Virus record (IMG/VR): IMGVR_UViG_3300032782_000001
Span: 52,404 to 116,403 of that record
Length of the DNA stretch: 64,000 nt
From: a virus
Direction: 5' to 3' (one strand)
A program made the position numbers and the translations under genes. Under the pieces are notes generated by a model, which made no database searches, had not been told where the DNA came from, and saw only the letters and a program-made list of their open reading frames with translations. Positions 22,185-29,514 of this stretch are shown one piece after another. The number at the start of each line of letters is the position of its first letter. The first letter of the stretch is position 1.

Positions 22185-22500
22185 TTAGTTCTCCACAAGA
22201 GCAAGGGTCACACTCATTGCATACATTTAGTCCGTGTAACTTGCACGATATAGGAATAGCGCATGTCATCGCGAATCTCCTCTGACACCCTTTCTGGTGC
22301 CGACGAGCCTCGGTACAGACACATTGGATGAGCTGGCAGTCACAATCCTCCACTCGACCGCGAGCCGTCCAAACATCGAAATCTTCCAAGAATGCTCCTG
22401 GAGGAGCTTCCCCTGTATCAATCCAGTATTTCGTTCCTCGGACGATCTCTTCGGGTGGAGTCCCTTTCAAGAATAAAAGAACTTTGTTTTCGACGGTCAC
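22165..22500 (-). CDS. hypothetical Cys-rich protein
   Basis: 111 aa; CDCQLIQCVC...CNECDPCSCG. Confidence 0.4.
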   Translation of the reverse strand: MTVENKVLLFLKGTPPEEIVRGTKYWIDTGEAPPGAFLEDFDVWTARGRVEDCDCQLIQCVCTEARRHQKGCQRRFAMTCAIPISCKLHGLNVCNECDPCSCGELNETNGT

Positions 22501-23141
22501 CAGTTTTCTCCAGGCTTCCTTTCGAAAGCTCCCTGGATCCTCTCTTTGACACTGTCCATGTTCGTCCCATCGTATCTGACCACATATCGATACGATCCGC
22601 GATTGGACGCGTACATCTCATTCCAAGGATGAGCAATGCAAATAACGAGACCTCGAGGCCTCACTTTCTGCCATGCTTCGAAATAAGGCGGGAAATCATC
22701 GAAGAGGACGCGCCCATAGACAAGAGACTTGTCTTGAGTGATCGTGACGTTGGCCTTCGGCATGTTCTCCTGACACCACTCGACCTTCTCGGTCCAAGCT
22801 CCCGTTGTCTTGACGGGGCCCTTCGTCAGAGCATGAAGTTCGAACCCTACGGCTTCAAGCTCGGCCACCACCTCGAATCCGAGTTGGATTCGAGGAAGAT
22901 TCCGCCAGAATCCAGGTTGCCTCTTGACGAGATCCCGACGAGCCACGATATGAGGAGGAATGTTGACCCACCCTTCATAGCGCTGTTCATCCGGGCCATA
23001 GAGGGGTTCCATGGCCGTGGCCAAAGCACCATCATAATCTGCCACAGTTCCGTCGAGGTCGATGAGTGCAATCCTATCGCCAGCCGTTTTATTCATACCA
23101 ACTCCAATTCTTCGCCAATCAAGACTTCCGCCAACCCCCAC
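22497..23141 (-). CDS. HAD-superfamily 5'(3')-deoxyribonucleotidase-like hydrolase
   Basis: IALIDLDGTVADYDGA (DxDGT motif I of HAD hydrolases). Confidence 0.55.
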   Translation of the reverse strand: MGVGGSLDWRRIGVGMNKTAGDRIALIDLDGTVADYDGALATAMEPLYGPDEQRYEGWVNIPPHIVARRDLVKRQPGFWRNLPRIQLGFEVVAELEAVGFELHALTKGPVKTTGAWTEKVEWCQENMPKANVTITQDKSLVYGRVLFDDFPPYFEAWQKVRPRGLVICIAHPWNEMYASNRGSYRYVVRYDGTNMDSVKERIQGAFERKPGENW

Positions 23142-23452
23142 GTTCCATCTTCGTGTGCCACAACACGTGTCACACGGACGAATTCTGGGGGAAGAATTTC
23201 TGCGATGGCACTGGACGCCATTGAGACTCCTTTTACTTCCACTTCAGCCAAATCGTGTGGATCCACACGACCTTTCGCGAAGATGGCCGTTTCGCCGGTC
23301 GGAATGATTAGCTTGGACAAGTTCCCACGGATTCCACGTTTTACCCAAACGTACAACCCTTTTTGTCCTCCTTCCGATGCGACCATCCAAAGGTCTACAC
23401 GAGGAATACCGCCCAACAGCAGCCTCACTCCTTTCTCAGCTTTCAGTTTCAT
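23093..23452 (-). CDS. hypothetical protein
   Basis: 119 aa. Confidence 0.35.
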   Translation of the reverse strand: MKLKAEKGVRLLLGGIPRVDLWMVASEGGQKGLYVWVKRGIRGNLSKLIIPTGETAIFAKGRVDPHDLAEVEVKGVSMASSAIAEILPPEFVRVTRVVAHEDGTWGLAEVLIGEELELV

Positions 23453-26798: not shown

Positions 26799-26822
26799 GG
26801 GTTTCCTTCTGGGTATGACTCG

Positions 26823-28820
26823 TCAAGAGATGACGAGGAGCGAGATTTCTTGCCTTGATACTGCGTAGAGTCCGGCATTTGCGGCGATAAGTTTCATTCC
26901 TGCGTCCACGAATGGCTCCGTATCAGGAAAGGTCTTCATCACCGACGCGGAGCCATTCTCTGCCTTGACTTGGACCACACCTTGATCGGTCGGGACGAGC
27001 AGTACGCGGTTCACGGCACAACATCCGCGAATGTTGGAAAGCCAAGACCCGTCGCCGGCTTCGGCTTCTGCCGAAGCTTCCACAGCGCCGTCGGGCCGCA
27101 GGACCGTGCAGCGATTGACAGTCTTGCTGCCTTCTTGAGTCGAAGTCAGGAACCAAGCCCTGTCTTTCGACAATTCGCAAGTTGCATCGATCAGTTTTCC
27201 TCTGATCAGATGAACTTTGACAGAATCGTTGATTCCGCCAGATTTGGTTCCGAACACGAACGACCTGACAAGTTGTCCAGCCCTGTAAAAGCCGAATCCA
27301 AAGGTCTGCCCTGTCCAGAATAAAGTTTGGCCTCCAAGAACGTCCCCGATCCTTTCCGGACCGAGCCGTCCTTCCTTGTACAGAGAGTCCCCATGGACCC
27401 AGAACAAGTTCTCATCATTCGTATCGAAGATAGTCAATGAACCAAGAAGATCTGCATCCGTCCTGCCCGCGGAAGTTCCTCCTACGAGTTTCACGACGAT
27501 CCCGTCTCTAGCCATGAAAGTTGATCTACCCTGAAGTCGGAACCTAAGCCTCGGATCAATTTGACCGTCTGCCACTCGTGAAGAATCTTCACGAATAAAC
27601 TTCCCATTGTCGTGATAAAGCCAAATGAGGCGGCCTTCGTGGAGGTCGGCCCTTACTATAGTTCCGCGGGTTTGGAAAATCCTTGTAGCTTTCACCTGGC
27701 CCCGGATTTCCACATGTGCTTTGACAGCTTCAGGTACAATAGTGGAACAGTGGGGACATGAAGTGCGAGCGTGTTCTGCTCCACATCCTGAGCATTTTGT
27801 CCAATGGAGCCTCTCGAGCAGACTAGCAGGAAATGGTCCCCTCTCATCTCGCTCGAATACGAGATGGAACCTCTGCAAGAGATCATCCGGCAAAACACCG
27901 TATGGAATGGCGGGCTTCGGGTATTTCACTTCCGGGTGGAAGACTGTAATTCGTTTGAGAGGCCTTGCTGAATGGACTAAAGCCTTCGTCGGATCATGCG
28001 GTTTATAAGTACCTCCGAACGGGTCCGTGAAGAGAAGGCACTGGAACACCATTACGAAGAATGCATACCAATCCGAATTCTCGTTATGAGCCTTCACGAG
28101 ATGGAGGCTGTTGGCAGCAGGATCACAAAGAGTTGGATCCACAAATCGCTGCGTGAAAACAGAGCAACGGAATTTCCCGAATTGCATTGAATCGGCATCA
28201 ATGAAATCCGCGTCCTTCCCCGTTACCATGACATTCAAATCATTGAAATCGCCGATAACCGCTCCCGCCTTGTGTATGGCGTCTACGGTAATCCTCATCC
28301 CCTTGAGAATAGAAATGACATCTTCGGTGCTGATAGCCTGACGGAAATTGCGTTGCGTGTAACGAAGGAGAACTTCCGCCCCTTTCAGCATTCGCATCAC
28401 ATATCCGACAGTCCGTCCTTTTCCATCCAATGCCAAGGCATCTGGAATAACGACATGGCCTGGCATACCTTTCGGGAATGCGGGCAATTTCAATTGATGC
28501 TCTTCAATCCTGCGAGATGCTGCTGCTTGAGCTTCGGGTTGACCGTCGAAGTCGGGATGGTCAGGTCGCTTAAAGATCTTCACAACCTGATCAGTGCCGA
28601 ATGGATAGATCTCCGCTTCTCCTCCTTGACCGAGAATTTTGCTCGGATCCAGCCGACTCTTTTTTCCGTCAACCCAGATGTCAGGCACGGTGCAAAATTC
28701 TCCTTCCAGAAACGAAAGTCGTGTCGTCTTCCAGCAAACCTGGAAATCTGGACCCGACTCCTCCATTAGCAAGGACGAGGTGACGCCGTCCAACATCCGC
28801 GTTGAGGAAGAATTTTTCAT
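26823..28820 (-). CDS. protein-kinase-like domain protein with C-terminal beta-rich domain
   Basis: glycine loop ILGQGGEAEIY, conserved Lys VVKIFK, IGDFNDLNV (HxDxxxxN-like) and DADFIDA (DFG-like); start ambiguous and overlaps the PP2C gene end. Confidence 0.5.
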   Translation of the reverse strand: MKNSSSTRMLDGVTSSLLMEESGPDFQVCWKTTRLSFLEGEFCTVPDIWVDGKKSRLDPSKILGQGGEAEIYPFGTDQVVKIFKRPDHPDFDGQPEAQAAASRRIEEHQLKLPAFPKGMPGHVVIPDALALDGKGRTVGYVMRMLKGAEVLLRYTQRNFRQAISTEDVISILKGMRITVDAIHKAGAVIGDFNDLNVMVTGKDADFIDADSMQFGKFRCSVFTQRFVDPTLCDPAANSLHLVKAHNENSDWYAFFVMVFQCLLFTDPFGGTYKPHDPTKALVHSARPLKRITVFHPEVKYPKPAIPYGVLPDDLLQRFHLVFERDERGPFPASLLERLHWTKCSGCGAEHARTSCPHCSTIVPEAVKAHVEIRGQVKATRIFQTRGTIVRADLHEGRLIWLYHDNGKFIREDSSRVADGQIDPRLRFRLQGRSTFMARDGIVVKLVGGTSAGRTDADLLGSLTIFDTNDENLFWVHGDSLYKEGRLGPERIGDVLGGQTLFWTGQTFGFGFYRAGQLVRSFVFGTKSGGINDSVKVHLIRGKLIDATCELSKDRAWFLTSTQEGSKTVNRCTVLRPDGAVEASAEAEAGDGSWLSNIRGCCAVNRVLLVPTDQGVVQVKAENGSASVMKTFPDTEPFVDAGMKLIAANAGLYAVSRQEISLLVIS

Positions 28821-29514
28821 CCTCCCAAAGCTGACTCATGGGTCCGACAGTTCGAGTCTTTCCAGGAAGCGGTTTGTCCGCTGACTTATGAAGTGAAGTC
28901 AACCCGTCGCTCCCGATCAAGAAGCTTTGAAGGTCTTCAGTCTTCATCGCCTTATGCACAACGAATTGCATTTGTTCCTCCTTCATGGAGGTCTTCACAA
29001 GCCCGTAGCCAAGATATGGCGGCATATTGCCTTCGAATGGCCCAAGGAATGATGTCTCCCCGTTCACAGAGATGCACCCATCGCCGATAGACGCGAATTC
29101 GGTCCGTTCGGGGGTAATGACAACGCAAACAACAGTGAAGAGAAAATAGTCGTTGACGAACGATGGATTCACACGCCCTTCGGAATCTTCGGCACCAATC
29201 CCCCGAGCCCACTTTCGCATCTCCCAGAGGGCGTCCCGTCGGATAATAGACCAGGCCAGAATTTCTCTGGGGTTCCGAATAGTCCATCCAGATCGGACTC
29301 GAAGGTGGTCAGCGATTGTGTGGGTCAGAAGAAGAGACCCGAATTGTGCTCCGACTTCGCTATACTTACCGCTCGAGCATCCGTCGCAAACCACTGCGAT
29401 TGTGAAATCCGAAGTTTGGAGAATCGATACCCCATCCTGATTGTTCTTGCCAGCTCGGATATGATCATATCCGGGAATACTCCCGCGAGCCAGTTCGAAA
29501 ATGTTCTGCATCAA
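28681..29514 (-). CDS. PP2C-family Ser/Thr phosphatase
   Basis: GKNNQDG...AVVCDGCSSG metal-binding motifs of PP2C/SpoIIE phosphatases. Confidence 0.55.
   Translation of the reverse strand: MMQNIFELARGSIPGYDHIRAGKNNQDGVSILQTSDFTIAVVCDGCSSGKYSEVGAQFGSLLLTHTIADHLRVRSGWTIRNPREILAWSIIRRDALWEMRKWARGIGAEDSEGRVNPSFVNDYFLFTVVCVVITPERTEFASIGDGCISVNGETSFLGPFEGNMPPYLGYGLVKTSMKEEQMQFVVHKAMKTEDLQSFLIGSDGLTSLHKSADKPLPGKTRTVGPMSQLWEDEKFFLNADVGRRHLVLANGGVGSRFPGLLEDDTTFVSGRRILHRA

Follow-up and report, generated by a model that had tools for sequence, protein, structure and literature searches.

Why would a huge phage carry a protein kinase, a protein phosphatase and a von Willebrand factor A (vWA) protein beside an enzyme resembling a nicotinamidase? 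The question is raised by a 64,000-nt stretch of IMG/VR virus record IMGVR_UViG_3300032782_000001 (positions 52,404 to 116,403 of the record; the whole stretch is called the window below), in which a tight run of minus-strand open reading frames (ORFs) occupies positions 22497 to 29514. A preliminary description of this run had seen a loose accessory cluster in which a kinase/PP2C/vWA triad stood among enzymes of nucleotide metabolism. We find that the triad and the nicotinamidase belong to a conserved four-gene operon present in bacteria and in huge phages. We propose that this operon is a phospho-switch of the TerY-P kind coupled to nicotinamide salvage, and that the phage uses it to sustain or rebuild NAD+; we give this proposal an even chance of being right.

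Triad and nicotinamidase genes form a conserved operon

Is the gene combination peculiar to the window? Window proteins were scanned against Pfam, PHROG, PADLOC and NCBIfam, with AlphaFold (AF2) and Foldseek used for structures, and homologues of the kinase were followed into other genomes. The first contigs found to hold one, from a cyanobacterium and from metagenomes, encode, in this order, a PP2C, the kinase, a protein of ~350 aa that is 48% identical to the window's nicotinamidase domain and a protein of ~262 aa that is 59% identical to its vWA protein. The kinase was found in 450 of 185,579 species genomes (GTDB) and on 13 IMG/VR jumbo-phage contigs, all of 42-545 kb. Its carriers are mainly Cyanobacteria and Patescibacteria-labelled metagenome-assembled genomes (MAGs); others are Planctomycetota, Acidobacteriota and Gammaproteobacteria-labelled MAGs.

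Across these genomes the order is conserved: PP2C, kinase, nicotinamidase, vWA. We assembled 99 related loci (cited by L numbers) and counted gene order in those with enough flank. Of these, 57 of 64 GTDB loci and 11 of 13 IMG/VR loci have the kinase followed on its own strand by the nicotinamidase and vWA genes, and PP2C lies upstream of the kinase in 69 of 70 and 11 of 12, respectively. Triad and nicotinamidase share one operon in about 90% of the ~80 loci with enough flank, so the triad is not the free-standing part of a loose cluster that it had been taken for. Gene overlaps of 8 nt and 4 nt point to translational coupling.

The closest relatives, L004 and L005/6, are phage-like, have 62-80% kinase identity and carry the long form of the nicotinamidase. 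More distant homologues of the kinase and the nicotinamidase are encoded 1.6-10 kb apart in the GenBank huge phages LR756500, LR745208 and LR756511. The operon also occurs in cellular genomes without phage context, on a 6.1-Mb Nodosilinea scaffold and on the Pseudanabaena minima chromosome.

The window block and its gene starts

The block holds eight genes rather than the seven first described, counting orf119 (23093 to 23452), which appears in the ORF list alone and is possibly coding, and a gene for a 91-aa protein (24715 to 24990) that had been overlooked. All lie on the minus strand. In the direction of transcription the core cassette begins with PP2C (28681 to 29511, 276 aa), continues with the Ser/Thr-type protein kinase (26823 to 28688, 621 aa) and a 592-aa protein that joins an N-terminal domain (residues 1-250; 26049 to 26798) to the nicotinamidase-like domain (residues 251-592; 25020 to 26048), and ends, after the 91-aa gene, with vWA (23915 to 24718, 267 aa). 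A HIGH-superfamily nucleotidyltransferase (23436 to 23918), orf119 and a HAD 5'-nucleotidase (22497 to 23096) follow.

How far do the kinase and phosphatase genes overlap? One database protein, 621 aa long and encoded on a 436-kb JGI contig, matches the kinase ORF at 100% identity, and the kinase start is therefore placed at GTG 28688, which is preceded by a Shine-Dalgarno sequence, GGAAGGAG. The overlap is then 8 nt at the PP2C stop codon, GTGCCTGA, and three related contigs have gene calls with an identical 8-nt overlap. The overlap of 80-140 nt given earlier was an artefact of choosing the first in-frame ATG. PP2C probably starts at ATG 29511, as against TTG 29514 in the ORF list. The vWA start is probably ATG 24718, as placed by alignment with homologues, among them a Leptolyngbya protein (59% identical) whose alignment begins at its own Met1; the 91-aa gene overlaps this start as ATGA. 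A HAD start at ATG 23096, giving an ATGA overlap with orf119, is most likely. A scan of 21500-33500 for promoters and terminators returned no more sites than shuffled sequence did, or fewer.

The kinase, phosphatase and vWA protein look catalytically competent

The kinase consists of a kinase domain (residues 1-295), a CxxC...CPxC zinc ribbon (299-314) and an all-beta, propeller-like C-terminal domain (326-621). Listed as an ORF of 665 aa, it has no Pfam match above cut-off; the Pkinase model matches 28 of 40 family members singly and scores 15.8 bits on the window protein. The family profile found no match at E<=0.01 among PDB sequences, and the single window sequence matches RSK kinases in the PDB at 7e-4. 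Is it, then, an active kinase? Aligning 40 family members (mean column identity 62%), we found invariant G20xG22, K37, D147/N152 (in GDFNDLN), D164xD166 (IDADS), D206-W207 and R242. The ribbon cysteines C299, C302, C311 and C314 are invariant in these 40 sequences as well; the alpha-C glutamate, E63, is common, yet not invariant. The AF2 model, with a pLDDT (predicted score in the local distance difference test) of 90.6, comprises the kinase domain, the ribbon and the C-terminal domain of ~300 all-beta residues. Foldseek matched it to more than 1600 kinase chains, the top one being LRRK2, in which a kinase is followed by a WD40 propeller. Weak matches of the kinase domain were to LanL and to PD-T4-6 and PglW, which are defence kinases in PADLOC. 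With the VAIK lysine, the catalytic aspartate and the DFG-position aspartate invariant and a fold that matches kinases, the earlier assignment stands: from its residues and its model, the protein is predicted to be a divergent, catalytically complete protein kinase.

The two other signalling proteins were also identified correctly by the preliminary description. PP2C exceeds the Pfam PP2C_2 cut-off (1.9e-18; 67 bits versus 24). Across 84 homologues, conservation of its metal-binding aspartates D26, D43, D144, D202 and D262/263 is 95% or more, and it shares 40-66% identity with the PP2C encoded upstream of the kinase in L001-L006. The vWA protein gives a weak match to Pfam VWA (21 bits, 3.8e-4); despite this, its metal-ion-dependent adhesion site (MIDAS) is intact, with D62xS64xS66, T132 and D168 at least 95% conserved in 75 homologues. 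Equally conserved in these sequences are S243, S245 and S250 of a C-terminal SQSA..SQ tail. To judge from these residues, all three proteins look catalytically competent.

TerY-P systems, as outlined in PMC11090510 and PMC7699616, unite a vWA protein with a PP2C and with a kinase that bears a zinc ribbon or OB fold at its C-terminus (Anantharaman, Iyer & Aravind 2012), and were reported as anti-phage by Gao et al. 2020. The cassette resembles them in that the same three components (vWA/MIDAS protein, PP2C-like phosphatase, Ser/Thr kinase with C-terminal zinc ribbon) are encoded together, and in occurring in both stand-alone and add-on contexts. The triad is a real signalling triad, of the TerY-P type. 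It differs in that a nearly always linked nicotinamidase gene interrupts it, giving the order PP2C, kinase, nicotinamidase, vWA; in the further beta-propeller-like domain of ~300 aa on the kinase; and in its setting, amid NAD metabolism under the repressor NrtR (below) rather than among tellurite-resistance or restriction genes. The vWA, PP2C and nicotinamidase proteins had no match in the PADLOC scan, whose coverage of TerY-P models was not established.

The third gene encodes a long-form nicotinamidase-like enzyme

The 592-aa protein had no match in Pfam (E<=0.01, including isochorismatase PF00857), PHROG, PADLOC or NCBIfam, nor in the PDB when searched as a single sequence. Its AlphaFold model has a pLDDT of 92.4. 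Foldseek's top 18 matches to the C-terminal 340 residues are all nicotinamidases, ahead of other isochorismatase-family enzymes, and the best include a Drosophila nicotinamidase of equal length. A catalytic triad, D305/K467/C519, is invariant in 50 homologues, as are the metal ligands D353/H355/H433 and W430. Three motifs align with Mycobacterium tuberculosis PncA, at D8, at C138 and, in the case of WPPHC, at PncA residues 68-72. Fold, triad and metal site all agree with the nicotinamidase-like C-domain of the preliminary description, and we take the protein to be a predicted nicotinamidase. Most homologues of this domain are stand-alone proteins of ~350 aa, named nicotinamidase by their sources, and many that are 45-60% identical to the window protein have a precomputed PF00857 match. 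Compared with bacterial PncA, the enzyme is longer by ~130 residues and has an insertion and the additional invariant residues H441, E449, R458 and TENYS 473-477.

The N-domain, residues 1-250, is an uncharacterised family without a match in Pfam or the PDB. A representative library holds 541 clusters of it, mostly free-standing proteins of 225-260 aa, with R29, W109, R183, G198, G200 and E213 invariant. In other proteins its fusion partners are calcineurin-like phosphoesterase and inositol-monophosphatase-family domains. It is joined to the nicotinamidase in one subclade only and is a separate ORF in the jumbo-phage locus L016.

NAD genes and NrtR surround the operon

In what company does the operon travel? 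We clustered the flanking ORFs of 93 loci, checked recurrent clusters against Pfam and NCBIfam, and counted the loci holding each. The most frequent neighbour was NrtR (Nudix plus NrtR winged helix), just upstream in 43 of the 93. Nicotinate phosphoribosyltransferase (PncB) was found near the cassette by tblastn in 23 of the 99 loci, including those of jumbo phages L016, L018 and L019, and eight of nine copies checked exceed the equivalog cut-off. Further neighbours are a fusion of a NadD-like domain to NAD kinase directly after vWA (12 loci), an ADP-ribosylglycohydrolase (ARG) between PP2C and kinase (12 loci), NAD synthetase (NadE; five plus four loci), a PRPP-synthetase-like protein (Prs; four loci) and NADAR (three loci). 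The cassette of jumbo-phage locus L016 is interspersed with genes for a free N-domain (NicN), NadE and PncB. Among the clustered neighbours there is no recurrent nuclease or other classical effector.

Perhaps the genes counted as PncB were Nampt/NadV, from the same NAPRTase family? We rejected this: the PncB equivalog cut-offs are passed, by the window copy too. The NadD-like/NAD kinase fusion, as seen in L021, L026, L031, L045, L053, L077, L084 and others, is ~460-475 aa long, and both halves fall under their equivalog cut-offs.

The published NrtR operator is a 21-bp GT-N7-AC motif, with ADP-ribose as anti-repressor (Rodionov et al. 2008, PMC2330246). A palindrome that fits it, wTAGTGTa-N5-tACACTAw, lies at most 400 nt upstream of PP2C in 27 of 42 NrtR-linked loci, and 32 operator-type sites were observed where shuffles gave an expectation of 1.9. 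This 21-bp palindrome, TTAGTGTA-N5-TACACTAA, often occurs twice per locus and is a candidate NrtR operator on cyanobacterial and Patescibacteria-labelled contigs (L022, L026, L028, L037-L040, L052, L053, L077, L082, L088, L091, L095-L098 and others). The window has no such site with up to two mismatches allowed, and none of the 13 IMG/VR loci is NrtR-linked. We therefore rejected the idea that the phage copy retains NrtR control.

The window has a full-length PncB of its own at 42836 to 44182 on the plus strand (TIGR01513, 456 versus 297 bits; NF009131, 436 versus 330). A PncB fragment at the edge of L004 is 74% identical to it. The window enzyme would use the nicotinate released by the nicotinamidase, which would give a phage nicotinamidase metabolic sense.

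Being welded to a nicotinamidase and embedded among NAD salvage I genes under NrtR, the triad is best read as part of a phospho-regulated salvage module and not as a general device for host phosphorylation.

Additions to the cassette in the phage

Which of the remaining genes in the block belong to the cassette? The nucleotidyltransferase has an HYGH motif and belongs to the RfaE-II/TagD/ECT branch. It matches Pfam CTP_transf_like (PF01467; 46 bits versus 21, 7e-12), TIGR00125 (59.6 versus 27.7 bits) and phrog_7878 (8e-20); its PDB matches are of ECT, RfaE-like and TagD type and include ECT 3elb, as well as 3glv and 5x9q. The resemblance to HldE-II/TagD proposed earlier is borne out by motif and profiles, short of HldE equivalog level (TIGR02199, rfaE_dom_II, 80 bits against a cut-off of 181.5). 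The gene directly follows vWA in L004 (80% identical), L005/6 (50%), L024 and L062, and is tied to the cassette in the phage-like subclade only. Could it be a NadD/NadM-type NMNAT? No likeness to NadD, NadM or NadR appeared in NCBIfam models, PDB matches or BLASTP against the L077 NadD-like domain. We rejected this identity on sequence; what remains is an analogy of position, since in bacterial loci the gene after vWA is the NadD-NadK fusion.

The 91-aa protein carries a CPVC motif and has no family match; an ORF at the equivalent position in L004 is 53% identical to it over 87 aa. The HAD protein has the DLDGT motif and exceeds the Pfam NT5C cut-off (4.7e-12; 46.6 versus 24.8 bits; also phrog_420 and phrog_2643), so that its first description as a HAD DxDGT hydrolase was accurate. 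For orf119, family libraries, related loci and the phage collection yielded no homologue. None of the 99 related loci contains the HAD gene or orf119, and we rejected both as cassette members; they are neighbours. The overlapping co-directional run extends beyond HAD on the minus strand (21680-22500), through the Cys-rich orf111 (22165-22500), orf117 (21831-22184) and a 54-aa ORF, none of which has a family match.

Other genes of the window

The window's 44 tRNA genes, its EF-Tu homologue and other gene content, and relatives on IMG/VR contigs of 42-545 kb indicate a huge phage, in line with the phage setting given in the preliminary description. No structural genes lie within the 64 kb, and megablast of the window DNA found no match among known phages. 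The tRNA genes are on the plus strand (45088-62762), cover nearly all amino acids and are interspersed with protein genes: the EF-Tu homologue (49184-50365), a GIY-YIG endonuclease (50434-51330), an M16 peptidase (54375-55643), an HNH endonuclease (60192-60704) and an Rv2179c-like 3'-5' exoribonuclease (61696-62262). An RtcB RNA ligase (16789-17997, plus strand, 418 bits) fits tRNA repair in a phage with a large tRNA set of its own; L004 encodes an RtcB-domain protein of 772 aa, with 72% identity across the aligned portion.

A short way upstream of the cassette, a minus-strand gene (30600-33206) encodes an 868-aa protein homologous to the eukaryotic major vault protein (MVP), with a Vault_3 repeat, the MVP shoulder and a weak SPFH/Band 7 match. 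The L004 copy is 79% identical and has the same relative position, accompanied by the small orf98 (30277-30573). Among NrtR-regulated operons of unknown function, some (nrtX) carry an annotation as Band 7 proteins.

A DUF4326 protein is encoded 1.3 kb from the cluster (20930-21205, plus strand, 91.6 bits). Iyer et al. 2022 (PMC9503650) assign this domain to the rhodanese-phosphatase superfamily and predict that it processes ADP-ribose derivatives at their terminal phosphates; its presence adds to the NAD context of the cassette. Two adjacent proteins with collagen triple-helix repeats, of 971 and 327 aa (36585-39500 and 39538-40521, plus strand), are possible components of fibres or of the surface. 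A CYTH-domain protein, a PLD-like (NucT-like) nuclease and an XRE-type helix-turn-helix (HTH) protein are among the products of 7902-8447 (minus), 10864-11490 (plus), 20142-20537 (minus) and 18860-20137 (minus); the XRE-type gene is directly upstream of one for a 425-aa protein without a match in any library.

Discussion

How does the operon compare with known NAD+ systems? The nicotinamidase has the fold, catalytic triad and metal site of PncA/Pnc1/Naam, the first enzymes of the Preiss-Handler route (salvage I; PncA-PncB-NadD-NadE), and in bacterial relatives the cassette adjoins PncB, NadD, NadE, Prs, an NrtR gene and the 21-bp GT-N7-AC operator, as do NrtR-controlled Preiss-Handler loci. 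Unlike PncA, it is a 350-aa long form, of 592 aa with the N-domain in the phage, and shares its operon with a kinase, a phosphatase and a vWA protein; no such operon is included among those tabulated for NrtR (PMC2330246). With NARP1, NARP2, NARP3 and the NAD-jumbo phages the cassette has in common a phage-encoded route from an NAD+ breakdown product towards NAD+, an enrichment in jumbo phages and a plausible role in countering NAD+-depleting immunity (PMC13464706; PMC11662467; PMC9503650 section 3.6). Whereas NARPs use Adps/Namat, Nampt/NMNAT or PnuC/NadR, the cassette offers the deamidated route, nicotinamidase plus PncB, with a dedicated phospho-signalling triad. Family scans of the submitted ORFs, from a 64-kb window of a 436-kb contig, found none of Adps+Namat, Nampt+NMNAT and PnuC+NadR. 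Jumbo phages are reported to carry Preiss-Handler genes (PMC11662467), and a survey of viral NAD+ systems makes no mention of PncA or nicotinamidase (PMC9503650). The domains, TerY-P triads and NAD+ synthesis by phages are already known; in the searchable literature we found neither their fixed combination nor its control by NrtR in bacteria nor its occurrence in huge phages. Nor did we find there a description of a nicotinamidase linked to vWA, PP2C and kinase, although overlap with a 2012 TerY-P sub-type is possible.

We propose the following mechanism. NADases, ADP-ribosyltransferases or sirtuins would cleave NAD+ to nicotinamide and ADP-ribose. The nicotinamidase would convert nicotinamide to nicotinate, and phage PncB (42836-44182) would convert nicotinate to nicotinate mononucleotide (NaMN). 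Adenylylation and amidation would then rebuild NAD+, through host NadD and NadE or possibly with the adjacent HIGH nucleotidyltransferase as a non-orthologous stand-in. Kinase, PP2C and vWA may form a reversible switch that gates the nicotinamidase step or reports on it, with the SQ-rich vWA tail as candidate phospho-acceptor and the beta-propeller-like domain of the kinase as putative sensor. In bacteria, NrtR would keep the operon off until ADP-ribose builds up. The phage copy appears to have lost this control and to have gained the N-domain, the small Zn-finger-like protein and the nucleotidyltransferase. In the phage, NAD+ may thereby be kept available for replication and NAD+-depleting defences blunted. 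An anti-defence role is plausible; that phages rebuild NAD+ as a counter-defence is established for other routes (PMC13464706).

Several observations weigh against this proposal. Window PncB lies 13 kb from the cassette on the opposite strand, and NadD and NadE are in none of the window ORFs put to family searches, so that the pathway as seen is incomplete. By sequence the nucleotidyltransferase belongs to the sugar/alcohol-phosphate branch, without similarity to NadD, NadM or NadR. Since the 592-aa protein has no Pfam isochorismatase match, its substrate could differ from nicotinamide. A simple salvage enzyme has no obvious need for a kinase/phosphatase/vWA switch, and canonical PncA has none. 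Seven GTDB loci keep the kinase, usually with PP2C, and lack the nicotinamidase or vWA in the available downstream flank (L055, L057 and L064 of Spirulina; L043, L074 and L080 of cyanobacterial MAGs; L079 of Prochloron); the kinase/PP2C pair can exist apart from the other two genes, or these have moved elsewhere. The ARG, NADAR and Macro-like neighbours and the spread across phyla would also suit a conflict system.

Might the triad be directed at the host instead? The preliminary description had it rewiring host Ser/Thr phosphorylation, with the HAD, nucleotidyltransferase and nicotinamidase-like genes as unrelated bystanders. Phage-encoded kinases that modify host proteins do exist, the three signalling domains look competent, and HAD and orf119 are indeed unlinked passengers. 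However, the operon occurs in the phage-free settings of Nodosilinea and P. minima and sits in NAD salvage and ADP-ribose neighbourhoods under NrtR; a host-directed triad would not stay with one enzyme over 450 species, nor under such a repressor. We consider host rewiring very unlikely. Alternatively, the isochorismatase-fold enzyme could act on a larger pyridine amide or related compound, such as nicotinamide mononucleotide (NMN), nicotinamide riboside, NAD+ or an NAD-derived signal. With the nucleotidyltransferase and the N-domain it might make or destroy a nucleotide-like messenger under control of the triad, in parallel with the "nucleoside-like metabolite" idea for Ter-linked clusters. 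The extra length, insertion and additional invariant residues of the enzyme would suit such a substrate, the fusions of the N-domain to calcineurin-like and inositol-monophosphatase-family phosphatases suggest a phosphorylated small-molecule ligand, the nucleotidyltransferase is similar to enzymes for the activation of sugar or alcohol phosphates, and the phosphatase-like DUF4326 gene lies nearby. This account is improbable all the same: nicotinamidases, including the equally long Drosophila enzyme, are the best structural matches, the metal site and WPxHC motif are nicotinamidase-specific, the recurrent partner PncB requires free nicotinate, and most loci are without N-domain and nucleotidyltransferase.

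A conflict system of the TerY-P or ARG-centric kind is harder to set aside, but we still think it rather unlikely. The operon would then be an anti-phage or anti-ADP-ribosylation device of bacteria and, in the phage, a means of superinfection exclusion or a captured counter-device; the propeller or vWA would sense an invader cue and the nicotinamidase would be the effector, for example by draining a rival's nicotinamide or by relieving product inhibition of an NADase or ADP-ribosyltransferase. TerY-P triads act as stand-alone anti-phage systems and as restriction add-ons, as outlined in PMC11090510 and PMC7699616, and the weak matches of the kinase are to the defence kinases PD-T4-6 and PglW. 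Identities of 45-55% over distant phyla and phages suggest horizontal mobility. The ARG, NADAR, Macro-like and Nudix neighbours and the Nudix-HTH repressor recall ARG-centric host systems, which are predicted to counter viral ADP-ribosylation and combine a Nudix-HTH repressor sensing ADP-ribose, an ADP-ribosylglycohydrolase, a vWA "chaperone", phosphatases and occasional Macro or NADAR proteins (Iyer et al. 2022, PMC9503650 section 3.8). That section lists no kinase, PP2C or nicotinamidase, whereas in the cassette these and vWA are the constant core, and ARG is present in just 12 of 93 loci. Apart from the kinase, the core proteins are without PADLOC matches. After NrtR the most frequent neighbours are biosynthetic (PncB, NadD-NadK, NadE, Prs), no classical effector or nuclease recurs nearby, the operator is an NrtR site of NAD-metabolism type, and the sequences are highly conserved, not fast-evolving, as the mean column identity of the kinase illustrates. 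A salvage-coupled phospho-switch accordingly remains our preferred reading. We would extend it only tentatively, and as less likely than not, to a widespread module of NAD+ homeostasis and conflict, whose switch would sense NAD+ cleavage or ADP-ribosylation stress and turn on the long nicotinamidase. Captured by huge phages, freed of NrtR and enlarged by a new N-domain and a non-canonical nucleotidyltransferase, the module would with PncB make a fourth, deamidated-route pathway of NAD+ reconstitution against NADase-based immunity.

NAD+ depletion is a major anti-phage strategy of bacteria, and its reversal by NARP1-3 is a recent and active topic. The locus points to a nicotinamidase-PncB route in huge phages that has gone unexamined, and flags a family of ~540 clusters, the N-domain, of unknown function and fused to NAD-related and phosphatase domains. 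In ~450 bacterial species, many of them cultivable cyanobacteria, a conserved operon ties nicotinamide salvage to a kinase/phosphatase/vWA switch. TerY-P-like triads, whose mechanism is still unknown, gain a definite partner in biochemistry, and ADP-ribose, by way of NrtR, is predicted as their inducer. If the extended reading is true, this would be the first salvage enzyme under a eukaryote-like kinase/phosphatase pair in bacteria and phages.

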